Shown here piece by piece: positions 33,433 to 55,207 of a DNA stretch of 64,000 bases. Both the position numbers and the translations under genes were made by a program. The DNA is from a virus: positions 1 through 64,000 of the IMG/VR virus record IMGVR_UViG_3300014208_000033; one strand, given 5' to 3'. Numbering within the stretch: position 1 is the stretch's first letter; every line of letters starts with the position of its first letter. A model generated the notes under the pieces. The model was not told the DNA's origin and did no database searches. It saw only the letters and a program-made list of their open reading frames with translations.

Positions 33433-36400
33433 ATGTTCGCTTGGGATGGATACTTCAACGCTTCTGCTGAACCTGATGCATCCACCCCCGTCTGGACTAA
33501 GACGGGGGTGGATCATGTCACAGCTAGCGCGAATACGTTAGTGTTCGCTAACTGTGGTACAGACCAGTGTTACTATGAGAGAACCTTTACACTCAGAGAT
33601 GATTCATTCTTCCTGTTAGACTTCAAAGCTAAGGTTGAAACTGGTCTTGTTACTAGACAAGTATGCTCATTCAACATAGTCAACTTGTTCAATCAGTTCG
33701 TTGTATTAGACATAGTTGATGGTAAGATTTTCGTCAACAGGACCGATGAGACAGTTGAGTGGTTTGAAGATGAGATCGCTTACGACACAACTTCAGACTA
33801 TGTTCACTTCCAGATAAAGTTCCTGTACACTGGTGAGTATTATGTGTTCATTGAAAACCAGTTGTTCGTAACAGGTAAGAGTACATATCAAACTCCATTC
33901 TATACAGCAAACAGAGTATTTTTCGGTAAGGTAAGCACTACAAGTGAAAATCATGAGTTCTTCATAGATGAAGTCAAATACGCTACTGTAAGTGATATCG
34001 GTGATGTGTCATCTACCTTTGCCGTTGAGGTAGATAAGACTGGTAATGAGCCTATCATAGCTATTGAGGCTCAGTTAGACTCTTCAGTTGTGAAAGAGTC
34101 ATTCGACAGTCATACGAACTTCACAGCTTATGGGAGTGCTGATACTTTATCAACTGATATAGTTACTAAAGAGCAAGGTGCTGGTGCAGTAAAGTTCAAT
34201 AAAGCAACTTCATCTGCATTAGTGAATGATGTTGTATATGATGGAGTAGCATTACCGGGTTCCTCTACACCATCATGGACTGTTGTAGGAACAGAATCAG
34301 CAAGTGTAGGAAGTGGTACATTAACTATAGCTGATTGTGGAATAGATCAGTGCATTTACAGTAAAACTATTACTCCTCTAGTAGACGGTGAAAGCTATTG
34401 GTTGAAAGCAAGAGTTTTTGTGGATGGTGGTGCCGGAAGCAATGAGAAACATTGTATTCGTTTAGGATCTTCTAAAGAAGTTGTCGTTACATTATACTGG
34501 AGTAGATTGTACATTTCTGGTACAACTGAATTAGATTATTCGGCTAACTTATCCTCAGACTTTGTTATAATCATAATAAGAGTAAAATACGATGGAACGT
34601 ACTATGTGTATCTGAATGACACTTTAATTAGAACCGGAGCCGGTCATGATCTAGCGTCCCCTGCTGTTTCATTTGGAAAATCCAAAACAGGAGTTGCACC
34701 TGCTGGTCCGGTTCCGTTTTTTATAGACTATATTGAGTACAGCAAATTAAAAGATTCGATATATTCTTCATTGAATATGTACAACGGTGCTTACTCCGGT
34801 CTTACTCGAACTAACCACTTACAGCTTACAGACTTCAACAGAGGCCGCACCTCATTCTATATCCCCGCTGTTGATCTCGCAAAGGTTTCTAAGCTGCATG
34901 TTGTGTTGGATGAGAGTACAGACCTTAGTAAGTATTCACACTATGAGAAAACGACTGGTCTTGTAGCTGGATGGAACCACTTTGACTACACCTTAGCTTC
35001 ACCTGATAATGTAGTCGGGACTCCTACAAGAGATGATATCTTGAGGTCGTTCTACTATTACGAATTTTCGCAATCTAGCGACACCTCTACTGGACTCATC
35101 ATCGACAACAACAAATACTTCTACTTTGCGGATGATACTGCTAGGTGGGCTAAGACTGATATCTTAGGGTACACCAACAACCACTTTTGGGAAGGTAGAG
35201 TCTTATCATTTGGAGCAGTTGAGCGTTCACTATCTGAGAGACGAGGGCTCTTTGACATTGGTGGTCTGTCAATCGTATTAGCTAACACAGATAAGAACTT
35301 CTTAACTAAGTACAATAAGTATGGTAGAGCCCCAGGCTTTAAGAACAAGACTATCTCAGTCAAATTGGGTTATCGTAACATTCCGTATTCTCAGTGGGAA
35401 AAGATATATGAAGGAGTCATCGAAGAGATAGGTATTGCTGGTAGGTGCTTTACTATTGATGTAGCCGACTACACCAAGATGTATTTTGATCGTGTTCCGA
35501 AGAACTTATTAGATCCTGTTGACTTTACTGCAATAGATGAAGGTGACAAATACACACCTGCACCAATAATTTATGGTGCTATTAGTGCTACGGGTGGCGC
35601 GCTTCCTACTATATATGTAGGTGAGCATGTACACACAAAGCATTACTACATCATTGCAGGTCACTATTGCAAGTCAGGAACATGCGAACTTTACGTCGAT
35701 GAGCAACTTTTTGCTTCTGGCGGAACACTCTTATATGGAGAAGGTGTAGACGAAGTAGCCATAGCTGTTTCATTCGTCGTTGACTACGATTACACGATCA
35801 ACGGCAAGAACTACTGTGTAATCGTTGTCGATGAGATAGACAATCCTGATTATGATCCAGGTACAGAAGGAAGTTTAGAACACATCAATCCGTTTGATGG
35901 TCGTGATATCACTGTTAACATCAGTGGTAAGACGATTGATGGTACTTCTGCTGGAACTCTTCTCACTGACGTAGTTGATTCGTTCTACGATTTTCTCACT
36001 GTTGAAAATCTTGTACCTGTTGCTCTTATTGACACGGTTTCATTTGCTGCAACTAAAGTGATCTTGAATCAACGAAATCAGATCATGGCAGGTGCGGTAG
36101 TTGCAGATAAATCAACTGAAGATGTTATCGAGGAAATATGTGTTTCTCATAACATCGACTTTTACTTCACTAAAGAAGGAAAGTTTGCTATAAGCACTTT
36201 CAATCCAGCTAAGTCTGACGTTACTACGAAAATAGTAACTGACGAAAGTGATATTCTTCAAAGCTCGTTCAAGATCAATCCAGGTGTTTCGATCCTTGTG
36301 AATAGAATCAGATTCCGGTATGACTACAATTACGTTAAAGAAACATGGGAGGGGTCGAATAAGTCTGAACGTCAAGAGTCAATTGATAAAGCTGGTCAGA

Positions 36401-36861
36401 TACATGATTGGCCCAACGGCTATTATGACTTCTATTGGGCTAGAACATATACTCCATGCAATAACGTCATATCTAAGCAGTTAGATAAGTTCAGTAATGG
36501 TCGTTTCACAGTAGAGATGGATCTTCCTCTCTCGATCTACGACAAAGACCTTACTGATAAAGTCAAGGTATCTAATGCTGAAGCTCCTCCTTCATTGGAC
36601 TCTGGTGCTAACGCTGATCCAGGTTGGACTGAACACCTTTGCGTTATTAGAAGGATGAGCCTGGACTTAGACAACCTCAAGGCTAATGTAAGCATGGAGA
36701 ACGTTCAAGACTTAGCTCAAGCATGTTTCTACTTCGGTGATCGAGATACATATACACCACTATGGGTAAATGCTTCTACAGAAGAGAAACTTCATGGTTA
36801 TTTGTGTGATAGATCAACAGGTCAATTCAGTAACAACGATGCAGGTATTAAACTCTGTTAG
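33433..36861 (+). CDS. Large tail/baseplate hub protein with repeated lectin-like N-terminal domains
   Basis: 1142 aa; two similar N-terminal modules (STP.WT..G...CG.DQC.Y); PIIYG hub motif. Confidence 0.7.
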   Translation: MFAWDGYFNASAEPDASTPVWTKTGVDHVTASANTLVFANCGTDQCYYERTFTLRDDSFFLLDFKAKVETGLVTRQVCSFNIVNLFNQFVVLDIVDGKIFVNRTDETVEWFEDEIAYDTTSDYVHFQIKFLYTGEYYVFIENQLFVTGKSTYQTPFYTANRVFFGKVSTTSENHEFFIDEVKYATVSDIGDVSSTFAVEVDKTGNEPIIAIEAQLDSSVVKESFDSHTNFTAYGSADTLSTDIVTKEQGAGAVKFNKATSSALVNDVVYDGVALPGSSTPSWTVVGTESASVGSGTLTIADCGIDQCIYSKTITPLVDGESYWLKARVFVDGGAGSNEKHCIRLGSSKEVVVTLYWSRLYISGTTELDYSANLSSDFVIIIIRVKYDGTYYVYLNDTLIRTGAGHDLASPAVSFGKSKTGVAPAGPVPFFIDYIEYSKLKDSIYSSLNMYNGAYSGLTRTNHLQLTDFNRGRTSFYIPAVDLAKVSKLHVVLDESTDLSKYSHYEKTTGLVAGWNHFDYTLASPDNVVGTPTRDDILRSFYYYEFSQSSDTSTGLIIDNNKYFYFADDTARWAKTDILGYTNNHFWEGRVLSFGAVERSLSERRGLFDIGGLSIVLANTDKNFLTKYNKYGRAPGFKNKTISVKLGYRNIPYSQWEKIYEGVIEEIGIAGRCFTIDVADYTKMYFDRVPKNLLDPVDFTAIDEGDKYTPAPIIYGAISATGGALPTIYVGEHVHTKHYYIIAGHYCKSGTCELYVDEQLFASGGTLLYGEGVDEVAIAVSFVVDYDYTINGKNYCVIVVDEIDNPDYDPGTEGSLEHINPFDGRDITVNISGKTIDGTSAGTLLTDVVDSFYDFLTVENLVPVALIDTVSFAATKVILNQRNQIMAGAVVADKSTEDVIEEICVSHNIDFYFTKEGKFAISTFNPAKSDVTTKIVTDESDILQSSFKINPGVSILVNRIRFRYDYNYVKETWEGSNKSERQESIDKAGQIHDWPNGYYDFYWARTYTPCNNVISKQLDKFSNGRFTVEMDLPLSIYDKDLTDKVKVSNAEAPPSLDSGANADPGWTEHLCVIRRMSLDLDNLKANVSMENVQDLAQACFYFGDRDTYTPLWVNASTEEKLHGYLCDRSTGQFSNNDAGIKLC

Positions 36862-36864
36862 GAA

Positions 36865-38199
36865 GTGACAATGACCTATCCTATATTCACAGACATAGCT
36901 GATTATGTGCTTGATCAGCTATACGGTTATCAGGATGCGAATGAGAACATTCATAATGCTATCAGACTTAGAGACGCATTTGACGTAGAGCATACATGGT
37001 CAAACACTGACGATACAGCTTTAGGTACTCATAACTTAGGGACTATGGCTGCTGGTTATCTTAAGACAAGTACATCAACAGGGGCAGTTTCGGCTTCTAA
37101 TTGGGGTACTAGAATTTCTATTACTACAGAATATTCGTTTAATCCAACTATGAAAGTATCTGCAACTAGCGGTCATGAAATGTATATTGTAAGCGGTTAT
37201 ATCTCTAATGATTACCATCCTGCTTATGGTGTAACTGCTTTGTTAGGAAAAGATACTTCTGGTGGAATGTCAACTTCTGTATATAACACATTTATAACAT
37301 TTGCTTATGATGGAGGAACGTCTTATTATATCTGGCGTTATGTTACAGCTTCTCCTCCTCATAATCTTGGTGAAATTGAAAACTGGGGTCAATTCGTTTA
37401 TGTTCATAGAAAAAAATCAGATGGTAAACTAATACAAATAGCTACTTTCGATGATGCTATATGGGCTTCTGGTAAAATCGGTTTACCGAAAAATCATCCT
37501 TATAGAATTAAGTTCTGTCCTAATCCTTGGCCTGAGTTAGTTCTTGCTGAAGACGAAGAAATAATATTACTTGATCTTCGTCATCTTAATGTCAAGGAAC
37601 AGTTCTTACGAGAGAAGTTCCTTTACGATAAACTTGTGTCTGAACATCAAATGTTCTTAGACTCAGGTATCTCTGAAGCTGATGTAATGAAGTTTGAAAA
37701 TGCACAGTTAGAAAAAGTTCGTAAAGAAACTCTTCAGATCTCTAAAGCACAGAATGACAATCATAACGTCGCTGATGAAAAAGAAAAAGCTTTAAGAAAA
37801 CTGAAGAAGAAAGATCTCTCAGAAGATGACATGTTCTTAGCTGCTAAGATCACTGATGATATTTTCAATCGTCTTCAGACAAAGATTGATCGTCGTCTCA
37901 AGTTCATGAGTAAAATCGATATCATCAAAGAAGCTTGTGATAGAAATGAAACGTCACTTGCTGAAGAGATAATGAACGGAAATCTTTCTGAAGTGAATGC
38001 AGAACATGAACTGAGTGACAAGCACTTACTTCCTCAGGTGGAAGAGTTCACAAAATCAGTGAGAGTTCTTTGTTCAAGTAAGAACACTGATATCAATGAC
38101 TTCAAAACAAAAGCTCTTTTATCGGTTGATCGTCTGAAGAAAAATCCTGTAATTCCCAGTGAAGAACCTAAACCTCCCAAGGAAGAAGGGAAAGTCTAA
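36865..38199 (+). CDS. Tail-associated protein with a charged helical C-terminus
   Basis: Position; probable start ATG at 36871. Confidence 0.6.
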   Translation: MTMTYPIFTDIADYVLDQLYGYQDANENIHNAIRLRDAFDVEHTWSNTDDTALGTHNLGTMAAGYLKTSTSTGAVSASNWGTRISITTEYSFNPTMKVSATSGHEMYIVSGYISNDYHPAYGVTALLGKDTSGGMSTSVYNTFITFAYDGGTSYYIWRYVTASPPHNLGEIENWGQFVYVHRKKSDGKLIQIATFDDAIWASGKIGLPKNHPYRIKFCPNPWPELVLAEDEEIILLDLRHLNVKEQFLREKFLYDKLVSEHQMFLDSGISEADVMKFENAQLEKVRKETLQISKAQNDNHNVADEKEKALRKLKKKDLSEDDMFLAAKITDDIFNRLQTKIDRRLKFMSKIDIIKEACDRNETSLAEEIMNGNLSEVNAEHELSDKHLLPQVEEFTKSVRVLCSSKNTDINDFKTKALLSVDRLKKNPVIPSEEPKPPKEEGKV

Positions 38200-38642
38200 T
38201 GAACCGTCTGTTTATGTTCCTGTTGGCTATGTGTTTTTTCTGCTCATCATTATTTGCTACAGTCTCTATCACTGATATTCGTGAAAAAGGATACATGACT
38301 GTTCTCGGTTCTGCAACTGCTGTTGCTAGTACCGCTACAGTTTACACTGACCCTATTTCTGTTATGGGTACAGAATATCATGGTGTCTATTTCAAACTGA
38401 ACGGCACTACTCCTAGCGTAAAGGTTTACATTCAGTCTTCATATTGCACCACATCAGCTACTTTTGGAGATATCAACACTAACTCCCTTTGCGCCACTAT
38501 TGCTAGCTCAACGGTTCCTTTCATTGACAACATCACTATCCCTGCTATGGGCTACATTCGCTTCAAGATCGTCGGTCAGGCTGGTAATGGTGCTGGTACT
38601 ACATTCGATGGCGTGATCTATCGAGACTCGAAGGTGAAGTAA
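38199..38642 (+). CDS. Signal-peptide-bearing beta-rich protein
   Basis: MNRLFMFLLAMCFFCSSLFA|. Confidence 0.75.
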   Translation: MNRLFMFLLAMCFFCSSLFATVSITDIREKGYMTVLGSATAVASTATVYTDPISVMGTEYHGVYFKLNGTTPSVKVYIQSSYCTTSATFGDINTNSLCATIASSTVPFIDNITIPAMGYIRFKIVGQAGNGAGTTFDGVIYRDSKVK

Positions 38643-38643
38643 C

Positions 38644-39780
38644 ATGTTACGAATTTTCGTAATCGTGGCGCTCCTCTGTGCTTGCACAGCGGAAGCGTCC
38701 TTCAACAAAGACACTTTCACTACTCCCACAGGTGTTGCGCCTATTGGCAACGGCTGGACGATGGACACCTCGTCTGGTAACTTAGTGTTCAAATACAATG
38801 ACGTTGAGAAAGGTTCTCTTACTCAAGCGGGTGTCTTTACCGCTGCTACCGTTACAGCTAGCACCGCTCTTAATGCCGCTGCTGTTCGTGATGCTGCTGG
38901 TACTGGTGCGGTTGCATTAACAAATGGAGCCGTCGTTTCCGCGAGCAAGGGCGTGCTGTTCACTGGTGGAGCCGCGCCTACAGCACCAACTACCGGAATC
39001 ATGATCTACGGTGGCACTCTTGCTAATCAATGTGTAGAGATTCAAGGTGCGAGCGGTGCTAAGTCTGGTCTTTCGGCTACTAGGCTCGCCCTCGGCCCGG
39101 CGGGGTCGGCGTTGCCGAGCTACGTCGGGTGCTACAAGGGGTATCCGACGTGGACCGATGGCGCCGTTGAGGCCATAGACGTTTCCGGGTCTGGCGTTGG
39201 CGGCACCGGAGATTTCTATGTAAAGGGCACCGGTAGCGGATTTGGATTCGCGTCAAGCGGGGACACGTCGTTTACGGCTACTCAAATAGGATCAGACGGC
39301 TTTAGGAGCAAGGCATTAACTGCCCCCGCTCCGCTAACCTACGGCCTCACCCTCCCCGGCAGCGCCGCCCCCTCCGCTCCGACGACGGGCGTCGTGCTCT
39401 ACGCGGATCTCGTCGGCGCTGGCGTGAACCCGACGGTATATGCGCTCAAGGCCACGTCTGGCTACTCGAATATCCAAGCGGGGGTCGTTTCTGGATCAAC
39501 CGTCTTTGGGTCAACCGTCAAGGGCACCAATTTTTATGGTGGTTCCTCCGCTAGCGGAGCGGGAACCGCAGTTCCGCTTAGTATCGGCGCTTACACGCCG
39601 ACAGGCTACGGCATCGGCATCGGCGTTGCCGCTCCGACGTTCAACGGGCTCAGGATACTCAAGGGGACGAACCCGTTGGTGGGGTATGCGGATACTGCTG
39701 CTATTTATACAGACTCAGCTTCAGAGAGTTTAATCTGTACGTTTGACACTGGTGCTGTTACAGCCGTCACGCATCCATAG
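38644..39780 (+). CDS. Signal-peptide-bearing Gly/Ala/Thr-rich fibre-like protein
   Basis: MLRIFVIVALLCACTAEA|; AAP.APTTG repeats. Confidence 0.75.
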   Translation: MLRIFVIVALLCACTAEASFNKDTFTTPTGVAPIGNGWTMDTSSGNLVFKYNDVEKGSLTQAGVFTAATVTASTALNAAAVRDAAGTGAVALTNGAVVSASKGVLFTGGAAPTAPTTGIMIYGGTLANQCVEIQGASGAKSGLSATRLALGPAGSALPSYVGCYKGYPTWTDGAVEAIDVSGSGVGGTGDFYVKGTGSGFGFASSGDTSFTATQIGSDGFRSKALTAPAPLTYGLTLPGSAAPSAPTTGVVLYADLVGAGVNPTVYALKATSGYSNIQAGVVSGSTVFGSTVKGTNFYGGSSASGAGTAVPLSIGAYTPTGYGIGIGVAAPTFNGLRILKGTNPLVGYADTAAIYTDSASESLICTFDTGAVTAVTHP

Positions 39781-39791
39781 TGTTAACTTAA

Positions 39792-39828
39792 TCTCACCTA
39801 GATACGTTCAACTCGTATCTAGGTGAGA
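39792..39828 (+). terminator. Hairpin TCTCACCTAGATACG...CGTATCTAGGTGAGA
   Basis: 15-bp perfect stem between genes. Confidence 0.7.
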
Positions 39829-39845
39829 GCCTATAAAGGAGGGCA

Positions 39846-40526
39846 ATGTATCATTTAATCTTTTTCTTATTATTAGCAAATACCTTATTTGCTTCTGCTC
39901 CAGCTAACTTATCTGAGAACACATATCTCCCAGCAAATCATATCATTGAACAAGTTATTTTGTGGCCTGCTAAAGCTAAAGGACTTCAAGACCTCGGTCC
40001 TGATTGGCCTGATGCAGAACAACGAACACTTGGTAGTGGGATATTGTTACAGGTTTATGCTTTCAGCCCATCTGCTGTAGAAACTTATTATGGAACTTGG
40101 CATCCACTTCATCACACAACTAGATCAGGTCAGTGCTATTTTGATTTGCATTATAAGATGAACTCAGCAGATACAGGTACAGTTAGGATGACAGCTTCAT
40201 TTTGGACATGTCATCCTGGGACTGACTTAGCCGCACTTGGTGCTGCTACAGCTACAACATCTTGGACAATTGACCCTAGAGACACAGCAGCTTATGACGA
40301 TGCCAACTTCTATGCTATTGCGTATTCTGGCACTGTTAATGGTGGTCAGATGGGGCAGATCAACATAGCTGATCTTGGTCTTACGTCAATTCAAGATGAA
40401 GTAATTTACATGCTTAGGCGAGATGCAACAGACGGAACAAATGATACTCATACAGGTGATCTTGACTTAATTAGACTTGAAGCGCATTATGCTGTGTACG
40501 GACAAATCTTAAGCATAGGAGAGTAG
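39846..40526 (+). CDS. Signal-peptide-bearing beta-sandwich-like protein
   Basis: MYHLIFFLLLANTLFA|; R.A....DT.TGD..L C-terminus. Confidence 0.75.
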   Translation: MYHLIFFLLLANTLFASAPANLSENTYLPANHIIEQVILWPAKAKGLQDLGPDWPDAEQRTLGSGILLQVYAFSPSAVETYYGTWHPLHHTTRSGQCYFDLHYKMNSADTGTVRMTASFWTCHPGTDLAALGAATATTSWTIDPRDTAAYDDANFYAIAYSGTVNGGQMGQINIADLGLTSIQDEVIYMLRRDATDGTNDTHTGDLDLIRLEAHYAVYGQILSIGE

Positions 40527-41591
40527 ATGACTAAGTATTTGATCTTAGCACTTGCAATTATTGTTGGAGGGTGGTGGTTAACACCACTTGAGGCACAGTT
40601 AACTCCTTCAAGAGAGACGGGCGTGTTGAACTGGGATTCTAACAAGTTTCAATTTAGCGTTAGCGGAACACCTGTTCTTACTGTAGCTTCTACTGGTGAT
40701 ATAACTTCTAAAACATTAATAATTGAAAAACAAAATCCTGGGATTGATCCAACTCCATCTACTTCTGGTTATATTTCATGGGTAGATTTAAATGGAATTG
40801 CCTGTTATCCGGTTATGCATATTGTTGGAAACGGAAGTAATTTGGCAATTGGAAGTTCTGCTCTTAAATCAAACACTACAGGAAAAGATAATTTAGCAGT
40901 AGGAACTCAGGCTTTATATTCAAACACAACAGGAAGTTATAACCTAGCCGTTGGAATCTATTCATTAGATGCTAATACAACAGGAAATAATAACTTAGCT
41001 GTTGGGTATAATTCCATGACTCGTAATACCACAGGGTATTCTAATTTAACAGTTGGAGATTCGACAGCGATATATAGTACAACCGGGAATAGCAATTTAA
41101 GTGTTGGTTATAAATCAAGTTACTATAGAACAACTGGAAGTAATAATTTATCAGTTGGCCGATTTTCGAGTTATTATGGAACAACCGGAAGTGACAACGT
41201 AGCAATAGGTGGTTATTCTTTAGAAAATGTTTCTTATGGTATAGGAAATATAGCTATTGGTTATTGTGCAGCAGAAAGTTCTTTAGTTGATGAAGATGAG
41301 GACATAGGTTCTTCGGTTAATAACATTATTGCTTTAGGTGCATATTCTTGTCGTGATGTACCAAATGACGCTAGTAACATCATATCATTAGGTTATTGTA
41401 GTGGGACAACTCCGGTTAGTAATAATGTGTATATCGGCGGTTTCCAAGATGGGGTTCAATATCCTCTTCATCATAACTGGGAAGTCCCTGCTGCTGATGT
41501 TACCGCTGCTGTTGCTACCGCTAGCACTACCAAATTGAAGATCACAATCAATCGGGTAGATTACTATATACTTATGACAACTGTTCCCTAA
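40527..41591 (+). CDS. Signal-peptide-bearing adhesin/fibre with YadA-head-like repeats
   Basis: MTKYLILALAIIVGGWWLTPLEA|; 16-aa NTTG..NLAVG..AL repeats. Confidence 0.8.
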   Translation: MTKYLILALAIIVGGWWLTPLEAQLTPSRETGVLNWDSNKFQFSVSGTPVLTVASTGDITSKTLIIEKQNPGIDPTPSTSGYISWVDLNGIACYPVMHIVGNGSNLAIGSSALKSNTTGKDNLAVGTQALYSNTTGSYNLAVGIYSLDANTTGNNNLAVGYNSMTRNTTGYSNLTVGDSTAIYSTTGNSNLSVGYKSSYYRTTGSNNLSVGRFSSYYGTTGSDNVAIGGYSLENVSYGIGNIAIGYCAAESSLVDEDEDIGSSVNNIIALGAYSCRDVPNDASNIISLGYCSGTTPVSNNVYIGGFQDGVQYPLHHNWEVPAADVTAAVATASTTKLKITINRVDYYILMTTVP

Positions 41592-41603
41592 AGAAAGGAT
41601 TCG

Positions 41604-43853
41604 ATGATGCGTAACTTACTGTTCTTTCTGTTAGTGATCTGTTTTGTTTCTACTGGTTTCTGTGCAGAGAAGCGACCTGATTATCTCGGTGTTAATAAGA
41701 CTGTGCTGAATGCTCAGTCTGTTCCTCCTGTTATTCTTTCAACTCCTGAGGGTATGCTTTGGTGGGATAGCGGTACTCATTCACTCAAAGGCTGGAACGG
41801 TTCAGCCTGGAAGTTAGGCAGCACCGGAACATTCAGTGATATCGAGTTATCAACCATTAGCGCGGCTGATGGTACTCTCGCTTTAACTCTCAGTAATTCA
41901 ACTGCTCTCGCTACTTTTGCTGGTGTGATTGACGTTAGCGATGTTGAAGCTGCCACCGTTTCCGCCCGCGACGGCACCCTGGCCCTGACCCTGACGAACA
42001 GCACCGGGGTCGTGGCCTTCTCCGCTACGCCCACCGGCACCAACCTGGACTTTTCCGGGACGTTGTACGGGCATACCGTCAAGGCCGACCACATCGCAGA
42101 TGAAGCCGGGACCGGCGGGCCGTCGCTCACCAACGGCGCCACGTTCGCGGGCGACCTCCTGGCGGCGACCGACAACGCTCGGGACATCGGCGTCTCAGGC
42201 ACCGAGTTCAAGACTGCATGGGTGCAGAACCTTGACGACGGGGACGGCACGGTCAGCGTGACGGCCATCCTGGCGCCCGACAGCATCGTGAGCCCCGGCA
42301 GCATCCACGGGCACGCCATCGACTCGACCGGCGACGTAACCGCTTCGGTCAACGTCGTGGCGCTGGGCGAGGTGCGGTCGAACGACTACAAGGACGATAC
42401 CGGCCACGGCGGCATGGTGCTCGACGCCGCTGGTGACGCCACGTTCCACAACAACGTGGCCGTCACGACCATGCTCGACACGCCAGACATCGAGACGGCC
42501 ACCGTGAGCGCCCGTGACGGCACCCTGGCCCTGACCCTGACGAACAGCACCGGCAACGTGGCCTTCTCCGCTACGCCCACCGGCACCAACCTGGACTTTT
42601 CCGGGACGCTGTACGCCCACACTGTGCAGGCCGACCACCTGACGAACGAGGCGGGCAACGGCGCACCGTCGAGTAACTTTAGCGGCGGGACCGGCAACGA
42701 GTTCTGGGGGGATACGGCCGGGTTGTCCTCGACAGCAGTCTACAGTACCGCGCTTGGTGGCTATGCGCTTAGGTCAACGAACGGCGACCACAACACTGCC
42801 GTTGGGCACCAATCCCTCAATGCGTCTGACGGCTCCTACAATTCGGCATTCGGCCGGATGGCACTTGAGTCGTCGCCGGGTAGCAACAACACCGCTGCCG
42901 GCTACTACGCGCTGCGTGACTCCACCGGCAGCGACAACACCTGTTTCGGCGTAAACTCCGGGACATCGGTGGTCGGTTCCAGCAACTCTAGCGTGGGCAG
43001 GTATGCGCTCAACAAGGTGACGGGAAGCGAAAACACCGCCCTGGGCTGGGGGGCCCTTTCGGAGTCAAACGGCAGCTACAACGTGGCGGCCGGCTCAAGT
43101 GCGATGAACACCTCGCCCGGTTCCAACAACGTCTCCATAGGCACGAAGTCCCTTTACTTCGCCGCAGGCAGCAACAACGTAGCCGTCGGGCACAGGGCAC
43201 TGGAGAAGGCCCCCGGGAGTAACAACACGGTCGTCGGGTACCATGTGGCAGAGCCGGCATACCGTACCGTCAACTACCTAGCCGCCCTGGGCTCGATGGC
43301 ACTGGAGGACGTCACCACCGGGGCGAGCAACCTTGCTGCCCTGGGCTACATGGCTGGCCACACCGCTACCAACCAGACCAACCAACTCTACCTCGGCGGC
43401 TGGGATGGCGGCACGCAGTACCCCCTGACGCTCAACTGGGAAACGACTGCCGTGAGCGCGAGCCTCGGTGTGCGTGTGTTCGTGAATCGCACCGAGTACA
43501 TACTTCCGCTGATGAGCACCGCAGGAACGCTTACGACCACGGGGCAGTTCGTCACGCCGAAGAAATCCGACCTCACCATCGCCACCGCTGCGATCACCGT
43601 GACCGGCGCATACCACACGATAGCGGCAGAGGGCGGCGTGGCTGACACGCTGAGCACCATCAACGGCGGCGTGGACGGCTCGCGCGTGCTGCTGCGCGGC
43701 GCGGCGGCGGTGGCTATCACGGTGGACGAGGCGGGGAACATCCTCGTGCCGGGGGCGTCCATCACCATCGACAACACGGGAGATACGGCAGAGTTCATCT
43801 ACTCGGGCGGGATTACCAAGTGGGTCATGATCAGCGCAGCGGATAACAACTAG
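41604..43853 (+). CDS. Signal-peptide-bearing long fibre/adhesin with YadA-head-like repeats
   Basis: MMRNLLFFLLVICFVSTGFCA|; 15-aa GS.NTA.G..AL repeats. Confidence 0.8.
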   Translation: MMRNLLFFLLVICFVSTGFCAEKRPDYLGVNKTVLNAQSVPPVILSTPEGMLWWDSGTHSLKGWNGSAWKLGSTGTFSDIELSTISAADGTLALTLSNSTALATFAGVIDVSDVEAATVSARDGTLALTLTNSTGVVAFSATPTGTNLDFSGTLYGHTVKADHIADEAGTGGPSLTNGATFAGDLLAATDNARDIGVSGTEFKTAWVQNLDDGDGTVSVTAILAPDSIVSPGSIHGHAIDSTGDVTASVNVVALGEVRSNDYKDDTGHGGMVLDAAGDATFHNNVAVTTMLDTPDIETATVSARDGTLALTLTNSTGNVAFSATPTGTNLDFSGTLYAHTVQADHLTNEAGNGAPSSNFSGGTGNEFWGDTAGLSSTAVYSTALGGYALRSTNGDHNTAVGHQSLNASDGSYNSAFGRMALESSPGSNNTAAGYYALRDSTGSDNTCFGVNSGTSVVGSSNSSVGRYALNKVTGSENTALGWGALSESNGSYNVAAGSSAMNTSPGSNNVSIGTKSLYFAAGSNNVAVGHRALEKAPGSNNTVVGYHVAEPAYRTVNYLAALGSMALEDVTTGASNLAALGYMAGHTATNQTNQLYLGGWDGGTQYPLTLNWETTAVSASLGVRVFVNRTEYILPLMSTAGTLTTTGQFVTPKKSDLTIATAAITVTGAYHTIAAEGGVADTLSTINGGVDGSRVLLRGAAAVAITVDEAGNILVPGASITIDNTGDTAEFIYSGGITKWVMISAADNN
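41952..42638 (+). repeat. ~140-bp intragenic direct repeat (41952-42092 and 42498-42638)
   Basis: ATVSARDGTLALTLTNSTG.VAFSATPTGTNLDFSGTLY.HTV.ADH occurs twice, near-identical DNA. Confidence 0.9.
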
Positions 43854-43974
43854 CCCCCAACGAGGGGAACGCATCTGTAAGATCGTAACGGATGACCGTT
43901 GCTGAGATTACGAATTTTCGGAATGTGGTAAGAAATGGGAACACATTAAAAGCGTAACTGATAAGGAGATCAAA

Positions 43975-44079
43975 ATGAGTGTTGTTGATCATGGCTCGCA
44001 GGGTATCGTGAAGTTCGTTGTGGTCGTGTTGGCTGTTATGGCTTGTCTCTATTTCTACTTCGGCTATCTTCCTAAGTAG
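43975..44079 (+). CDS. 34-aa single-TM peptide
   Basis: AAGGAG RBS; MSVVDHGSQGIVKFVVVVLAVMACLYFYFGYLPK. Confidence 0.6.
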   Translation: MSVVDHGSQGIVKFVVVVLAVMACLYFYFGYLPK

Positions 44080-44097
44080 TTAGTAGAACATTAAACA

Positions 44098-44127
44098 TCT
44101 CCCGGTAGGACTAACACTACCGGGAGA
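44098..44127 (+). terminator. Hairpin TCTCCCGGTAG...CTACCGGGAGA
   Basis: 11-bp stem. Confidence 0.6.
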
Positions 44128-44146
44128 AGTAGAAAGGTAAAAGGAG

Positions 44147-44515
44147 ATGATAGACCAAGAAGTAATTAGTCTAATAAACACTTTCATGAATAGATTAGAA
44201 AAAATGAATGATCGATTTGCAGAAGATGATAAAGTGATGGCTGAAAAAATAGCTGATATTAGTAAGAACTCAGCTTTAACTGCACAAGCTCTTGCTGTTA
44301 TGCAGACAACTCATGTTAGTTGCATGGCGTTAAGAGAAAAAGAAGCTATCGCTAAAGCAGCGGCAGAAAAAGATAAAGCTGAAGAAGATAAGAAGAATAC
44401 TGACTTCAGAGAGAAACATGAATTGTATGGATCATTGAAAATGAAGTTTGTGAACATTGCTGGTTCACTTGTTCTTATGGTTATTGGTGCGCTACTTGGA
44501 AAGTATCTTGGATGA
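44147..44515 (+). CDS. Coiled-coil protein with C-terminal TM (XhlA/holin-like)
   Basis: Architecture and position in the lysis region. Confidence 0.55.
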   Translation: MIDQEVISLINTFMNRLEKMNDRFAEDDKVMAEKIADISKNSALTAQALAVMQTTHVSCMALREKEAIAKAAAEKDKAEEDKKNTDFREKHELYGSLKMKFVNIAGSLVLMVIGALLGKYLG

Positions 44516-45375
44516 TAGAAGAAAAAGCACCCTCACTTGACCAAATGATTGATGGTCTTGATAAGACAAAAGAACTACATGAGTCCATCGAGAAACGACC
44601 TGTCCACTTTGAGATTTACGAAAAATCGGAACAGGCTATATGGATTTTCTTATCTGACTTACACCTTGGCGCAAGAGGGGTGGATTACAAATACTTCAAG
44701 TCGATAGTAACTCTCTTGCGGAAGAACCTTAATATTAAGGTAGCTATGGTTGGAGACTTGTATGATAACTTCCTTCATTTCGTGTCTTTACGAGGAGCTA
44801 ATGACTCTGTTGCCCCTCCTTCAGTTCAGATAGATATGATAATGTCTTTTCTTGAGGAACTTGATGCTAGAGATCAGCTTCGTATAGTTGGTCTTGGTAA
44901 TCATGATTTGATCCGAGAAGAAAAAGCAGTTGGGTATTCAGTCATAAAGAAGATATCAGATTCATCGATTAGATCGAAGATACTTGAGGGTAAAGGCAGA
45001 ATAGCTCTTTCAGTTGGTAAAGATAAGAAGTCTGCTGAGTTGTATCAGATCATCATGACTCATCAAGCTGCTGGTCATTCGATTTATAACCCAGTTCATG
45101 GCGCGATGAGAATTGCTAGAATGGAAGGGCACCCTGACGTAGTAGTTACTGCCCATACTCATAATCCAGCTATGATGATCTACAAAGAAGCTGGTAAAGA
45201 TATCATAGCCATTAAGTGCGGAACGTTCAAGACTAAAGACGCCTACTCTGAGTATTTCTATTGTAACGGTAAGATCGGCATACCGTGCATTGTGTTCTGT
45301 TCACATGAGCATAAGATGATACCGTTTGGAAACCCCGAAGACTTATTGGTTTATATGAGGGGAATGAAGAAATGA
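44512..45375 (+). CDS. Calcineurin-like metallophosphoesterase
   Basis: SDLHLG, GDLYD, GNHD, HTH. Confidence 0.88.
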   Translation: MIEEKAPSLDQMIDGLDKTKELHESIEKRPVHFEIYEKSEQAIWIFLSDLHLGARGVDYKYFKSIVTLLRKNLNIKVAMVGDLYDNFLHFVSLRGANDSVAPPSVQIDMIMSFLEELDARDQLRIVGLGNHDLIREEKAVGYSVIKKISDSSIRSKILEGKGRIALSVGKDKKSAELYQIIMTHQAAGHSIYNPVHGAMRIARMEGHPDVVVTAHTHNPAMMIYKEAGKDIIAIKCGTFKTKDAYSEYFYCNGKIGIPCIVFCSHEHKMIPFGNPEDLLVYMRGMKK

Positions 45376-45866
45376 AATTCATGGAGATCAAGGAGATTGA
45401 AGAAACTTACGGTAAAATCGAATATGATAATCTTGATGGTGGTTGGGTTAGAATAACTAACTCATTTGAGAAGCTTAACATCATCAGGAAAGACTTCCCG
45501 TTGGTTGGTAAGAAAGCAGTTCATAAACTGATAGTTCCTGCATTGAACAAAGCGTTGCATGTCATAGAGCGAAGTTCGATGTTCGATACTAACTTTGAGT
45601 ACATCGTAGATTTCCAGACATTCGCTCCTAGACATGTGATGAATAACCCTAAAGCTAGATTATCCTGCCACTCATACGGTATAGCCTTTGATATCAACCC
45701 TAGCGAAAATATGCCGGGGGTGAAAGACTATAAGATACCTAAAGTCATCGTAGATACATTTGAGAATGTTGGGTTCATATGGGGTGGCAGAATGAAAATA
45801 AAAGACTGGATGCATTTTGAGGTGTCCAGAGAGTTCATTGATTTTGCTGAACGTTGGAAAGGCTGA
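45372..45866 (+). CDS. Endolysin, M15 family peptidase
   Basis: R...LSCHSYGIAFDINP...WGG...DWMHFE. Confidence 0.88.
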   Translation: MKFMEIKEIEETYGKIEYDNLDGGWVRITNSFEKLNIIRKDFPLVGKKAVHKLIVPALNKALHVIERSSMFDTNFEYIVDFQTFAPRHVMNNPKARLSCHSYGIAFDINPSENMPGVKDYKIPKVIVDTFENVGFIWGGRMKIKDWMHFEVSREFIDFAERWKG

Positions 45867-45870
45867 TTTA

Positions 45871-46188
45871 ATGGGCTTCCGTGATATCTACGTTCAGTTC
45901 ATGGAAGAGAAACGAAAAAAGACTGAGATAGCTAAGAAGAAGAATCAAGAGAACACATTAGAAAAGATACGCAATGAAAGTAATACCAAAAAGAAGGAGG
46001 ATCAAAACAAGAGGTTAGAGAAAAGTAGAGGAACGGGTAAACAGAAAAAGAAGAAGCGAAAGATGATCGAGTGCTTTGAGTGTGGTGGCTCTGGTGTTGG
46101 TGACAACGAAGTGATCTGTCAAGAATGTGGCGGGTCTGGTCTGAACAAAGAAAGGGTTGAAGAAAATGGATTGGCAGAAAATCGCTGA
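45871..46188 (+). CDS. Basic protein with DnaJ-type CxxCxGxG zinc finger
   Basis: CFECGGSG...CQECGGSG. Confidence 0.65.
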   Translation: MGFRDIYVQFMEEKRKKTEIAKKKNQENTLEKIRNESNTKKKEDQNKRLEKSRGTGKQKKKKRKMIECFECGGSGVGDNEVICQECGGSGLNKERVEENGLAENR

Positions 46189-46636
46189 GTATTTTCTCCC
46201 GGCGCTTCTGGCACTTGTGTATACTCTTGCTGCCAAGTATGCTAGTGGTGCTGTTGGCAATTTACTTGAGAAGGTTGTTGAGCTTCTGATTAGCGCAAAG
46301 ATGAAGGTTAATGAGAACAAAGTCCTTGCGTTCACGAAGTTCGATGATTATATCTTCGATAAGATTAGTTCAGTGGTGCTCGCGGTGAAAGACTCTTATG
46401 TTGACGATATCAAGGCGGCTTCGGCTGATGGGAAACTCACTGAGGTCGAGGCTAAGGCAATTACTGAGAAAGCCATTGAGATGTTCAAGGCGTCACTCAC
46501 TAAGGACGAGTTGAAGAATCTCCAGAGTGTTGTCGGTGACGATATCAAGGCTTATCTCGCTAGCAAAATTCCTCAGGTGTACTCACAGGTTAAGTCGGCT
46601 ATGAAGGCTGATGTTCCTGTGGTCCCTCAGGCGTAG
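46166..46636 (+). CDS. Holin-like protein
   Basis: N-terminal TM segment; YVD.IK....DGKLT..E pattern seen in phage holin-region proteins. Confidence 0.6.
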   Translation: MDWQKIAEYFLPALLALVYTLAAKYASGAVGNLLEKVVELLISAKMKVNENKVLAFTKFDDYIFDKISSVVLAVKDSYVDDIKAASADGKLTEVEAKAITEKAIEMFKASLTKDELKNLQSVVGDDIKAYLASKIPQVYSQVKSAMKADVPVVPQA

Positions 46637-48816: not shown

Positions 48817-48995
48817 CAGTATTCATACCACCAGTCTTTACCTTTTAGGATGCCTTTAAGGAAAGCAACTTGTTCTTCCAGTGTCTTAAAGTTTCCAATC
48901 AATTCACGAACTTGATTTCTGAACTCATCAACGAACGGGAAGTTTCTATTTGATGGAGAATTGGCTTCTGCAATCTGATCTATCAACTCTTTCAT
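48816..48995 (-). CDS. Hypothetical protein, 59 aa (MKELIDQIAE...)
   Basis: Fills the gap with ATGA and TGATG overlaps. Confidence 0.55.
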   Translation of the reverse strand: MKELIDQIAEANSPSNRNFPFVDEFRNQVRELIGNFKTLEEQVAFLKGILKGKDWWYEY

Positions 48996-49822
48996 TTGCT
49001 TCCATCACATGTCTGTCTCGGGAACAACTCAGGGTATTTCTTCTTCATCTTTATGTTAGCGTTTCGCCAGTAATCCTCGGCGTTATTCGGCAAGTCATTA
49101 GCAGTAACATGCTTTGTGTGCCATATGAAATTACTCTGATCTATCCAGACACCATAACCCTTCTCACCAGCCCGATAACAATAGTCGATATCTTCACCTG
49201 AGAGTGGGAACTCTTTGTCATCGAGTAACCCAACCTCTTTCAGACAATCGTTGCTGATGAACATAGCAAATCCTGTAATCCATAACACCCTACGAGGGAT
49301 TACTTTGTTCATTCCCCACGAATACCCAAAGCACTCCTGCATAGCCGTTCGTGTCTGCATCTTCGTGAGGTCTTTAGCGTCACAGATATGTGTCTGCTGC
49401 AAGCCAGCAGCCCGATTAGTCATCGGCCCAACTATCCCAACCTTTGCGTATCGCTTGATGATGTTATACTGCTTGACGATCTTGGTTAAGAAGTGGTCAT
49501 GAACAATTACGTCGTTGTTCAGTAACAACACATCTTCGTTAGTAACTTCTTTGAGAACTTTGTTATTACCCTTAGCGAACATCAAGTTCTCTTCGCTACG
49601 GATAACCTCTACATTATACTGACGAGGTGGCATGTCAGTCAACTTAGTGTTGTAAGTGAACTTCTCTTTTGAACCGTTGTCAAGAATACTGAGTTGAACT
49701 TTGTTGTAGTACAAAGTGTTCTTGAGAAGTTCGTTGATAGCGAAGTGAAGTGAGTATAACATCTTGTCTGTATCTTCAAAGTGGTTGCAGACAAGAGTAA
49801 TGATTTTGAGTCTGTTTGACAT
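48992..49822 (-). CDS. Glycosyltransferase, GT2 family
   Basis: DNGS, N..FAKGNN, LLNND, EDIDYCYR, H. Confidence 0.9.
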   Translation of the reverse strand: MSNRLKIITLVCNHFEDTDKMLYSLHFAINELLKNTLYYNKVQLSILDNGSKEKFTYNTKLTDMPPRQYNVEVIRSEENLMFAKGNNKVLKEVTNEDVLLLNNDVIVHDHFLTKIVKQYNIIKRYAKVGIVGPMTNRAAGLQQTHICDAKDLTKMQTRTAMQECFGYSWGMNKVIPRRVLWITGFAMFISNDCLKEVGLLDDKEFPLSGEDIDYCYRAGEKGYGVWIDQSNFIWHTKHVTANDLPNNAEDYWRNANIKMKKKYPELFPRQTCDGSK

Positions 49823-49829
49823 GTTTTCC

Positions 49830-50723
49830 TTAGAGTAAAAAGTCGAATGAGAGTATAATGGACAGAACTTTCTTTACTGTGTTGATTGTAATCTCTTCAA
49901 TTGGAAGAAGGATATTCTTCTTTATGTTCTGCAACTGCTTAGGAAACCAAGCTTCAATTGGATTAGCGTTTTCCCATGTCTTATCGAATAGAAACACCGT
50001 AGGTGTCTTAGACAAGAAACCGATGTTCTTGAGTCCGTTATCGAAACAGAAGAAAATCTTAGCTTTGTCAATGATGGAGTTAACTTCAATTAGAGAAGTC
50101 TGACCACAAAGATTGATGAGTCTAAAACTCTTGAAGTTAAGTTTATCAAACTCTTCCTTCTTACCACCTAAGAAGAGTATTGGTAAGTCCGTTTCATGAA
50201 GAAGAATATTGATCAAGAGTTTGAACTTATCCTTTGACTTCTCATGTTGAAAACTCTTGTTAGAGTTACCAGTGAGTGATACACAAATATACTCTTTGAA
50301 TGGAAGATCAATTTCCTGAGTCTTAAGATGAATTGAAGTGTAGTCTATAGGATCATTGAGCTTAAGTACATTATCAGCATCATGAATCTTTAACTCGTAT
50401 TCGTCCTTGTAAACATGATTAAGTATCATGTCAGGTAAACGGTTAAAGAAATGGACACACTGTTCTTTCATCTTATCTGTGATGATGTTCTTGTTATTTG
50501 AAACGTCATCAAAGTCAATCTTGAGAATTCGTTGAACTTTGTGATTCAGACCAAGGATGAGATCAGTAAGTTCAAGAACCTTCTTAGGCTGTAACGGGCC
50601 TGAGTAGATTAAGTTCACCCCATCAAAAGTTGGGAACTCTTGATTGAGATATTGTTTCATTATCGGGAACAGTATGAGGAGATCGCCTACTGCCCCTCGC
50701 ATCCACACTATAGGATTATTCAT
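49830..50723 (-). CDS. Glycosyltransferase, GT9 (heptosyltransferase-like)
   Basis: GAVGDL...P, NLCGQTSL.E, D.G...TPTV.LF. Confidence 0.8.
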   Translation of the reverse strand: MNNPIVWMRGAVGDLLILFPIMKQYLNQEFPTFDGVNLIYSGPLQPKKVLELTDLILGLNHKVQRILKIDFDDVSNNKNIITDKMKEQCVHFFNRLPDMILNHVYKDEYELKIHDADNVLKLNDPIDYTSIHLKTQEIDLPFKEYICVSLTGNSNKSFQHEKSKDKFKLLINILLHETDLPILFLGGKKEEFDKLNFKSFRLINLCGQTSLIEVNSIIDKAKIFFCFDNGLKNIGFLSKTPTVFLFDKTWENANPIEAWFPKQLQNIKKNILLPIEEITINTVKKVLSIILSFDFLL

Positions 50724-51591
50724 GATCTAGAATATGTGTGTTATAAAACGACGATAAGAACATTTCATCATCATGATATCTATCAGAAACTTCACAGAAA
50801 GAAGCAGAAGGTGTATCAATAATTCTAGGTGCTTCAGAAGGGTGATACTTCCAAGGTTCTTTTGAATTCGACATAACATAAGTCTTATACCACTGGAAAT
50901 ACCAATCAAGGTACTTAGAATAAGTCGGATGATCTTTTCGGATCTCACTGAAGAACAATGACTTCAAAAACACCTGATTATCATCAACGTAGCAGAAATG
51001 ATCACAAAGAGGATGACCAATGATAGAAGCAGGACGTGAGTATTGCTCTTTCTCATTACCAATAGCGGGAGGTCGATGATCTAAGAAATTCCAATTCTCG
51101 TTAACCTTGAAAATCCTAGCAGGGTGATCTTCCCAAACCCCACCGTAAAGCCTCTTGTAATTAATCCAATACTTATTCTGCTTGATTGGAGCGATGTTAG
51201 GCTGAACAGCCTTAACCATCTGCTTGATCTCTAACATCGCTTCATCGGTGTACCACTCGTCTGCATCAATCTGCATGAGGTAATCCATGCCATCATAAGC
51301 AGCTTCAGCATATGCAGCTTGACACATCTCAAGCTTCTCTGAGAAGTACCCTTCGGTTAATTGCATAATAGTGCATGTTCCACCTTCAAGATTTTTGTAT
51401 GGCATAGTCTTAGGTTCAGTGTACTTAACCGGGACGACTATACCAAAATGATCATGAAGTGCTTTAATCTGAGGCTCAACAAATCCATAGACGACATACC
51501 ACTTATCAAAGTGTTTATGAAGGCGATTGTAATTTCTTGTGAACCACTCTATCGTAGCTGGATACACAAGTGAGAAAGCTGAGAACTTCAT
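50716..51591 (-). CDS. Glycosyltransferase (GT-A fold)
   Basis: QIDADEW DxD motif, RIFK, H. Confidence 0.75.
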   Translation of the reverse strand: MKFSAFSLVYPATIEWFTRNYNRLHKHFDKWYVVYGFVEPQIKALHDHFGIVVPVKYTEPKTMPYKNLEGGTCTIMQLTEGYFSEKLEMCQAAYAEAAYDGMDYLMQIDADEWYTDEAMLEIKQMVKAVQPNIAPIKQNKYWINYKRLYGGVWEDHPARIFKVNENWNFLDHRPPAIGNEKEQYSRPASIIGHPLCDHFCYVDDNQVFLKSLFFSEIRKDHPTYSKYLDWYFQWYKTYVMSNSKEPWKYHPSEAPRIIDTPSASFCEVSDRYHDDEMFLSSFYNTHILDHE

Positions 51592-52451
51592 ATCATATAC
51601 CTTTCACAAGTACAACAGTGTTCGATGTGTTCTTGCTTAGTCATTCTATTTCGGATCTCATTCATTCTAACCCCATTGAAAGCTTCATAGATATTCCCAT
51701 AGAAAGGAGCATCAAAGAAGTCTCCAAAGGTACACTTAGCATTCAAATCAGCACAGCACTTACCAACTTGCCAGTTAGAATACAGAACGAGTGTATTGAA
51801 AGGGAACGAACACTGTTTCGGGTACTGATAGTTACAATTATCAGTAGGTCCATTATCCCAATTATGAGTCTTACGAACATATGTTCGAGAATTGAGAAAC
51901 ATTATTTCATTATACGCTTGAATTAAATTCACATCTGGAACATCATACATTATTCCATTAGGAATGATAGACTGAATAACGGTCTTAATGTTCTTAGACT
52001 CATACACTCTCTCGCAATGGTCCTTGATCCTAAGAGCTATATTTCCACGGTTCCTGATACCGCGCGTAAGCTCATAAGTATTCTCATCGTAACCGTCGAG
52101 AGAGAAGCTAATAGTGGTTACAGATTTGTCGTTAGGGAGCGACTTGAGGTGTTCCGAAAATTCGGAACGCCACAGAGAGCCGTTAGTGTGAACTAAGCAG
52201 TTATAACCTAAGATGTTACAGATTGAAATGAACTTCAAGAAATCAGGATGGGTTGTAGGCTCACCAGAAAGAAACAGTCTAATCTCAGGAAGATTCTCAG
52301 GGTGCTCGATCTTATATCGCTCAAGCACCTCATGAAAAATCTCAGGGTCCATAAAATGAACTAGTCGCTTTTTCTCGTCACCACAGATACGGCAGTTGTA
52401 ATTACAGCCGTTAGTGATCTCAAAGTTGACTACCTGTAACTGAGACTTCAC
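51588..52451 (-). CDS. Radical SAM protein with a SPASM/twitch domain
   Basis: EITNGCNYNCRIC, GEP, TNG, SLDG, C..P...CC.D...C..C. Confidence 0.9.
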   Translation of the reverse strand: MKSQLQVVNFEITNGCNYNCRICGDEKKRLVHFMDPEIFHEVLERYKIEHPENLPEIRLFLSGEPTTHPDFLKFISICNILGYNCLVHTNGSLWRSEFSEHLKSLPNDKSVTTISFSLDGYDENTYELTRGIRNRGNIALRIKDHCERVYESKNIKTVIQSIIPNGIMYDVPDVNLIQAYNEIMFLNSRTYVRKTHNWDNGPTDNCNYQYPKQCSFPFNTLVLYSNWQVGKCCADLNAKCTFGDFFDAPFYGNIYEAFNGVRMNEIRNRMTKQEHIEHCCTCERYMI

Positions 52452-55035: not shown

Positions 55036-55207
55036 TATTCTCCACCTTTGCGAAAAGCATTGCAGTATTGAGGAAAGCAAGTGCAGTAAAGACACCACCA
55101 ATTACGTTATACCAGAAGAACACATGGTTAAGCATGAATGCAGAGAAAGCAAGTTCAGCAGCAACTACGATAGATTGTGCTGTAGCCTTACTAGATGAGT
55201 GAGTCAT
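55004..55207 (-). CDS. Small two-TM membrane protein
   Basis: AAGGA RBS before MTHSS; two hydrophobic segments. Confidence 0.55.
   Translation of the reverse strand: MTHSSSKATAQSIVVAAELAFSAFMLNHVFFWYNVIGGVFTALAFLNTAMLFAKVENNETKTSVSGS

Follow-up and report, generated by a model that had tools for sequence, protein, structure and literature searches.

By the textbook account, the structural proteins of tailed phages all assemble in the cytoplasm, and signal peptides on the tail fibres of such phages were not described in the literature that we searched. Here we describe five consecutive genes (positions 38199-43853, + strand) of the virus record IMGVR_UViG_3300014208_000033 (IMG/VR), a linear record of 107,668 bp without rRNA, of which the first 64 kb (64,000 nucleotides) form the stretch analysed here and called the window. 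The five genes, numbered 1 to 5 like their products, fill the whole stretch between the tail-tip and the lysis genes of a siphovirus-type late module, encode 1,854 amino acids (aa) together and all begin with a predicted Sec-type signal peptide. Such a block of fibre-type and lectin-type late proteins, all with export signals, is unusual.

Several described systems share some of these features. The repeat-type tail fibres and spikes of phages (phrog_23837, phrog_6002 and phrog_4636; HTVC111P gp52, CRP-7 gp48 and SPO1 gp2.52) have a repeat region homologous to that of proteins 4 and 5 (E values down to 1e-30, 33-45% identity), and their genes, like those described here, follow the tail-tip genes and have a mosaic design based on module swapping. 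However, the members from cultured phages that were examined have hydrophilic N-termini without a signal, and many of these fibre homologues carry the PF13884 chaperone domain and a 'GTG..SG.WG' N-terminal anchor, both of which are lacking from proteins 4 and 5. A signal peptide is combined with a fibre body in two kinds of secreted binding proteins, the MAT fibres of Bdellovibrio bacteriovorus and the 'tail fiber domain-containing proteins' (PF26696/PF13884) of Bacteroidota. The MAT fibres consist of a signal peptide, a conserved ~130-aa domain, rich in beta structure, directly behind it, a phage-like fibre body and swapped distal binding domains (Caulton et al., 2024; PMC10769870). Both kinds are encoded by cells, whereas the five genes described here lie in a phage late operon; among the proteins of Bacteroidota the Gln(+1) rule holds, which here is obeyed by protein 4 only. 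Trimeric autotransporter adhesins of the YadA family also resemble the present proteins: they too start with a signal peptide and have short, head-like repeats in which an Asn/Gly pattern is conserved; membership in this family was nevertheless rejected, as none of the five proteins has a Pfam match to the YadA anchor barrel, head or stalk.

Envelope-targeted phage proteins provide a different kind of precedent. T5 Llp, T1 and phi80 Cor and lambda Lom and Bor are accessory proteins of this type, encoded beside fibre or lysis genes, and they need not be present in the particle. XepA of PBSX, likewise encoded next to such genes, is made late and exported, and particles do not contain it (PMC6834076). 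The receptor-masking logic of T5 Llp and T1 Cor, together with the late timing and export of PBSX XepA, makes them analogues of the reading that we favour below. However, XepA, Llp, Cor and Lom/Bor are single, mostly small proteins without fibre homology, whereas the present locus has five consecutive genes, two of them with true fibre bodies, and no sequence relation of the five proteins to XepA, Llp, Cor, Lom or Bor was found. Finally, genes of unknown function with Sec signals in Porphyromonas phages have been read as envelope modifiers (Matrishin et al., 2023; PMC10367356). These differ from the genes described here in that no tail parts are named, that the host is one of the Bacteroidota with the Q rule, and that they include no block of fibre-like genes.

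The five genes and their parts are as follows (a slash marks the predicted cut):

38199-38642, + strand: protein 1, 147 aa; predicted signal at 38199-38258, MNRLFMFLLAMCFFCSSLFA/T, then a putative small beta-sandwich body
38644-39780, + strand: protein 2, 378 aa; predicted signal at 38644-38697, ...CTAEA/SFNKDTF, then a Gly/Ala/Thr-rich body of two related modules
39846-40526, + strand: protein 3, 226 aa; predicted signal at 39846-39893, ...NTLFA/SAP, then a putative CBM6/35/36-like jelly roll
40527-41591, + strand: protein 4, 354 aa; predicted signal at 40527-40595, ...TPLEA/QLT
40839-41297, + strand: nine 17-aa repeats of protein 4, NLAVG..AL.SNTTG
41421-41576, + strand: shared C-terminal module (C-module) of protein 4
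41604-43853, + strand: protein 5, 749 aa; predicted signal at 41604-41666, ...STGFCA/EKR
41946-42149 and 42492-42695, + strand: two copies of a ~65-aa unit of protein 5
42744-43271, + strand: about eleven 16-aa repeats of protein 5
43380-43514, + strand: shared C-module of protein 5
43548-43850, + strand: C-terminal ~100-aa domain of protein 5

A first-pass annotation, made by a model from the letters of this DNA, had pointed out the five open reading frames (ORFs), and both their coordinates and the N-termini that it quoted were borne out. Its view that ribosome-binding sites or tight packing support the starts also holds. Every ATG is the earliest start codon behind an in-frame stop, and 4-12 nt upstream of it lies a purine-rich Shine-Dalgarno (SD)-like motif (AAGG, AAGGTGA, AGGAGG, AGGAG and AGGA for genes 1 to 5), of the same kind as those found before other late genes; moreover, the ATG of gene 1 overlaps the stop codon of the preceding 444-aa gene (TAATG), and gene 4 abuts gene 3 with no gap. 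True starts downstream of the hydrophobic segments, which would undermine the signal calls, are not indicated, as no consistent SD was found at the start codons 3' of these segments in any of the five genes.

Signal peptides were predicted for the whole 107,668-bp record, with its 164 non-overlapping ORFs, by our own hydropathy scan and stricter rule-based scans. The lengths predicted by rule for proteins 1 to 5 are 20, 18, 16, 23 and 21 aa. The n-region is very short, with one Lys or Arg within the first 5 residues in four of the five proteins and only a His in protein 3, and from residue 3-5 on it is followed by an uncharged hydrophobic core of 11-17 residues (mean Kyte-Doolittle hydropathy of 2.8-3.7 over 8 residues). 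The predicted c-region has Ala at position -1 in all five cases and L, A, L, L and F, respectively, at position -3. A canonical lipobox ([LVI][ASTVI][GAS]C) was not seen on inspection of the five proteins, the L-C-A-C of protein 2 being borderline. Only eight of the 164 ORFs were flagged, and the five genes constitute the only run, the other three hits being scattered and weak; a run of at least five was obtained in 14 of 1,000,000 shuffles (p ~1e-5). The hydropathy scan found no signal in the core tail proteins encoded upstream, and the particle core would therefore be built in the cytoplasm as usual; the 1142-aa and 444-aa proteins encoded directly before gene 1 both lack a hydrophobic N-terminus as well.

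Whether homologues keep the signal, a question raised in the first-pass annotation, can be answered for proteins 2, 3 and 5, whose closest metagenomic homologues do so despite sequence drift. Protein 2 has three homologues only (P0122-P0124) among 5.8 billion proteins, and all three have a hydrophobic N-terminus; in P0123 the predicted cut falls at the same position (AGA/SFNPNTF, compared with AEA/SFNKDTF in protein 2), while the sequences of the hydrophobic cores are different. Fourteen relatives of protein 3 were found among 1.84 billion representatives. The five closest of them (229-257 aa; within P0127-P0132) have signal-like N-termini of unrelated sequence, whereas four distant relatives of ~200 aa have no signal and begin at once with the domain. 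The closest partial relative of protein 5, P0007, is 78% identical to it over the C-terminal ~100 residues and has a signal-like N-terminus followed by a motif like that of protein 2. Two groups can be distinguished among the sequences homologous to the repeat region shared by proteins 4 and 5, one consisting of phage-type proteins that start with 'MASTYVNDLRL..GTGD.SG.WG' and have no signal, the other of 'tail fiber domain-containing proteins' that bear a signal and come mostly from genomes of Bacteroidota. In addition, the fibres or spikes of the four cultured phages HTVC111P, CRP-7, SPO1 and Venkman all have hydrophilic N-termini without a signal.

Because the signal is kept in close homologues but is absent from the distant relatives of protein 3, from the fibres of cultured phages and from the phage-type homologues of protein 5, at least three unrelated folds appear to have gained signals independently within this lineage. 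Such a gain by at least three unrelated families would be hard to explain unless export were the selected property. The earlier inference that the five proteins are exported is well supported by the anatomy of the signals and by their conservation, predicted cut position included, in the closest homologues. We consider it likely that all five proteins are exported by Sec, and somewhat less so that their signals are also cleaved; the proteins probably work outside the cytoplasm, the compartment in which phage particles are built.

The fibre character of the block resides in its last two proteins. Proteins 4 and 5 both match the phage 'virion structural protein' and 'tail spike' families of the PHROG collection; the matches of protein 4 are phrog_23837 (E 1.4e-30), phrog_6002 and the tail spike family phrog_4636. 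Translated searches (tblastn) with protein 4 also detected tail fibres or spikes of Pelagibacter phage HTVC111P, Roseobacter phage CRP-7, Bacillus phage SPO1 and Methylophilales phage Venkman. The two proteins have no sequence relatives in the PDB, and the model of the C-terminal domain of protein 5 has a predicted local distance difference test (pLDDT) score of 35. The first-pass annotation had described their repeats as similar to YadA heads. The repeats (N..[AV]G) are indeed present in proteins 4 and 5, but the likeness does not extend to a Pfam match with a YadA head or stalk. Two shared elements that it had noticed were recovered, namely the C-module (..Y.GG..G.QYPL..NWE...NR..Y) common to the last two proteins and the D.AGTG...LTNGA motif, which occurs in protein 2 (aa 83) and protein 5 (aa 166). 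It was also right that an autotransporter beta-barrel is missing, as none was detected in the five proteins with Pfam and NCBIfam. Neither the S74/PF13884 chaperone (Pfam) nor a sorting domain of the type IX secretion system (TIGR04183/PF18962; Pfam and NCBIfam) was matched by any of the five.

The first three proteins are of a different nature. Protein 3 appears to be a stand-alone CBM6/35-like jelly roll: its AlphaFold2 model (pLDDT 87) is a jelly roll whose best matches among solved structures are CBM6/35/36 structures (Z 9.4-8.8, root-mean-square deviation (rmsd) 2.7-3.4 Å, 118-133 residues aligned), moderately above the background Z of 7-8. The match to 2cdo_A has a Z of 9.4, with an rmsd of 3.2 and 129 aligned residues; the best viral matches are terminal domains of collagen-like fibre proteins. 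No Pfam CBM family matched protein 3 above threshold. Residues H86, H89, D100, H102, D200, H202 and E212, within the 'DTHTG' motif, are invariant or nearly so in the alignment of this family, and these His, Asp and Glu residues suggest a metal site in the CBM-like jelly roll. An argument based on disulfides in protein 3 was dropped, since its cysteines are not conserved in the family. For protein 1, the look-alikes in the ESM Atlas, which are leads only, are small viral beta-sandwich proteins, with template-modelling scores of 0.58-0.66 to CBM_4_9, PPC and XepA-type models; it matches phrog_28213 weakly and has no tblastn match in cultured phages. Protein 2 has no assignable fold and no sequence relative in the PDB. 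The description of the block as five tail fibres thus stands for proteins 4 and 5, which are homologous to tail fibres and spikes, but not for the CBM-like protein 3, the small beta-sandwich of protein 1 or protein 2; judged by its sequences, the block seems to comprise two fibre bodies plus binding modules, and 'five tail fibres' is overstated. We propose that the five mature proteins would act as binding modules rather than as enzymes.

The base composition of the five genes is uneven. The GC content at third codon positions (GC3) is 0.77 in gene 5 (from ~41850 on) and 0.565 in gene 2, as compared with 0.22-0.27 in genes 3 and 4 and in the neighbouring genes. The corresponding high-GC patches extend over approximately 39050-39650 in gene 2 and over 41850-43853 in gene 5, in a phage of ~40% GC overall, while the native composition is found in genes 1, 3 and 4 and, over the signal and the first ~60 mature residues, at the 5' ends of genes 2 and 5. 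This points to a recent import of the distal modules of genes 2 and 5 from a high-GC source. A dispersed 16-bp palindrome (TTACGAATTTTCGTAA), present in nine copies with at most one mismatch in the record, occurs at 38647-38662 within the signal codons of protein 2 (M-L-R-I-F-V-I) and at 43908-43923 just after gene 5, so that this pair brackets genes 2 to 5. Given the native composition of the 5' ends and the presence of the genome's own palindrome in the signal codons of gene 2, the signal and N-terminus are therefore taken to be resident and the distal parts imported. A short motif just behind the signal is common to proteins 2, 4, 5 and P0007. The combination of a native 5' end with a swapped distal part is a design common to virion-anchored fibres and to the cellular MAT fibres (PMC10769870). 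Packing of the five genes is tight; they are coupled to the tail genes, and neither promoters nor terminators are enriched.

The reading that we tentatively favour, with a probability of about 0.45, is that the five gene products are exported binding proteins that act on the envelope and are not part of the virion. The five late genes would be transcribed, and in part translationally coupled, with the tail genes. Each pre-protein, with its short signal of the Sec/signal-peptidase-I type, would pass through SecYEG, be trimmed after the Ala at -1 and fold outside the cytoplasmic membrane, instead of being built into the particle in the cytoplasm. In the infected cell's envelope, the five mature proteins might then function jointly as exported copies of receptor-binding modules: the glycans or receptors that they bind there would be masked, so that superinfection would be blocked and progeny would not be lost on debris. 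We infer export, cleavage, location, binding targets and masking role alike from sequence. This reading is supported by the CBM-type fold of protein 3, typical of extracellular modules, and by the wide use of the repeat fold of proteins 4 and 5 with signal peptides in secreted cell-surface proteins of Bacteroidota and in the MAT fibres of Bdellovibrio. The lack of signals on the core tail proteins, the cytoplasmic assembly of all tailed phages known so far and the precedent of PBSX XepA speak for it as well. The 1142-aa tail-tip protein alone could supply the adsorption functions, and for a spare binding module the gain of a signal would be an easy evolutionary step. Some points nevertheless weigh against it. 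The five genes occupy the entire slot in which receptor-binding proteins normally sit, the 107.7-kb record shows no further fibre gene, and the mosaic structure of gene 5, whose 5' end is native and whose body is foreign, together with the shared motif behind the signal, corresponds to the classical design of a virion-anchored fibre. Furthermore, export by Sec in a diderm reaches only the periplasm and not the outer face, where most receptors are exposed; no homologue of known superinfection-exclusion proteins was found for the five proteins, and the signal calls come from heuristic, rule-based scans.

The first three of these points, taken with the coupling to the tail genes and with the fact that tail fibres, spikes and 'virion structural proteins' are among the homologues of proteins 4 and 5, would also fit exported virion fibres, that is, a true receptor-binding apparatus that is exported by Sec, folds in the periplasm or outside and docks on finished, fibre-less particles only once holin and endolysin have merged the compartments at lysis, or after release. 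The presence of a signal on all five proteins would be expected if these parts must meet in one compartment. However, assembly of virion parts outside the cytoplasm is not known for any tailed phage, and no such case was found in our literature search; proteins 1 and 3 each consist of one small domain in which neither a shaft nor an anchor can be recognised, and no docking partner was identified. A two-compartment morphogenesis, in which a peripheral receptor-binding apparatus exported by Sec joins the cytoplasmically built particles only at or after lysis, thus seems unlikely to us, though worth serious attention, and an exported role apart from the virion is at least as likely as a role as exported virion parts.

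The remaining explanations concern the signals themselves or the origin of the genes. Should signal peptidase not act on them, the hydrophobic N-termini would be signal-anchors in the cytoplasmic membrane or hydrophobic assembly helices, as might be suspected from the uncharged stretch of ~17 residues in protein 1, from the Phe at -3 of protein 5, which is unusual for signal peptidase I, and from the n-region of protein 3 without Lys or Arg. The cores of 11-15 residues in proteins 2 to 5 are, however, too short for a stable membrane span, Ala occupies position -1 in all five proteins, and protein 2 and P0123 share the same predicted cut position with respect to the mature sequence, which makes uncleaved N-termini rather improbable. 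Still lower is our estimate for captured cargo ('moron') adhesins of cellular origin that would decorate the host surface and be expressed apart from the late operon, for example in a lysogen. The GC3 of genes 2 and 5, far from the value of ~0.25 in their neighbours, and the many signal-bearing cellular homologues of the repeat region speak for such an origin, but the composition is native in genes 1, 3 and 4 and at the 5' ends of genes 2 and 5, the palindrome in the signal codons of gene 2 is the genome's own, and the tight packing and coupling to tail genes, with no promoter or terminator enrichment, do not suggest separate expression. The look-alikes of proteins 1 and 3 are viral, and no integrase turned up in the window, although no search was aimed at integrases. 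An artefact, by which the N-termini would be hydrophobic by chance or the starts mis-called, draws on the heuristic nature of the prediction, but is close to refuted by the rarity of a run of five in shuffled orders (p ~1e-5), by starts that are the first possible ones and SD-backed, and by conservation in homologues.

If the favoured reading of exported envelope-acting proteins is correct, phages might routinely export soluble copies of receptor-binding modules onto the envelope of the infected cell, which would constitute an unrecognised class of late accessory proteins; otherwise, part of the adsorption apparatus may mature outside the cytoplasm, and such a two-compartment morphogenesis, if true, would be a route not described for any tailed phage. 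Either outcome bears on the annotation of receptor-binding proteins in metagenomic phages and on the expression of such proteins for structural or host-range work, in which periplasmic folding may be needed.

The late module lies on the + strand between 17 and 46 kb of the window. It comprises the genes for large terminase, portal, prohead protease and major capsid protein, for a tail protein matching phrog_290, a 1161-aa tape measure protein, a 270-aa protein, the 1142-aa and 444-aa proteins, the five genes and the lysis region. From the tail genes to lysis, only the tape measure and the M15 endolysin have family support. The regions flanking the five genes are:

33433-38199, + strand: 1142-aa tail-tip protein (Tal-like, by position only) and 444-aa protein
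43975-45866, + strand: 34-aa membrane ORF, 122-aa C-terminally anchored coiled-coil protein, metallophosphoesterase and M15 endolysin

Neither the 1142-aa nor the 444-aa protein has a family match in the profile libraries searched, and the tail-tip protein has a single homologue, P0126 (1997 aa), among the 5.8 billion proteins. An N-terminal segment of this protein (33433-36861) is internally duplicated (..STP.WT..G......S..TL..A.CG.DQC.Y..T.., at ~aa 16-50 and 277-311). The lysis region (43975-46636) is atypical. The metallophosphoesterase sits between the 34-aa and 122-aa membrane ORFs and the M15 endolysin; the endolysin is followed by a CxxCxGxG zinc-finger protein and an N-terminally anchored coiled-coil protein, and no lipoprotein spanin was recognisable in this region.

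The five-gene region had no match in the nucleotide search. No related loci were found in IMG/VR for proteins 5 and 2, the 444-aa protein or the Tal-like protein, nor for alignments built from the relatives of protein 3, from those of protein 2 and from the C-terminal domain that protein 5 has in common with P0007; the alignment of this last domain also gave no match in JGI metagenome contigs, and neither the protein-3 family nor purB was matched in GTDB genomes. The nearest cultured phages, whose hosts span many phyla, have capsid and terminase proteins of at most 27% identity. Bacteroidota are unlikely as the host, because the SD motifs are consistent and the Gln(+1) rule is not followed.

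A glycan-building cassette on the - strand (48992-55101) contains two GT2 genes, a GT9-family gene (score 30.2 bits, cut-off 22) and radical SAM genes, and adjoins a gene for a flavin adenine dinucleotide (FAD)-dependent protein. The GT9-family gene points weakly to a host bearing lipopolysaccharide. GT9-like heptosyltransferases glycosylate the adhesins AIDA-I and TibA; by analogy, the Ser/Thr/Asn-rich repeats of proteins 4 and 5 might be substrates for glycosylation by enzymes of the cassette prior to export, and protein 4 contains many NTT, NLS and NLT triplets. Note also that two tandem 132-aa paralogues (23202-23600 and 23636-24034), both beginning with MAGESTAKATVIS, lie directly upstream of the major capsid gene and may represent duplicated head decoration or scaffold genes.

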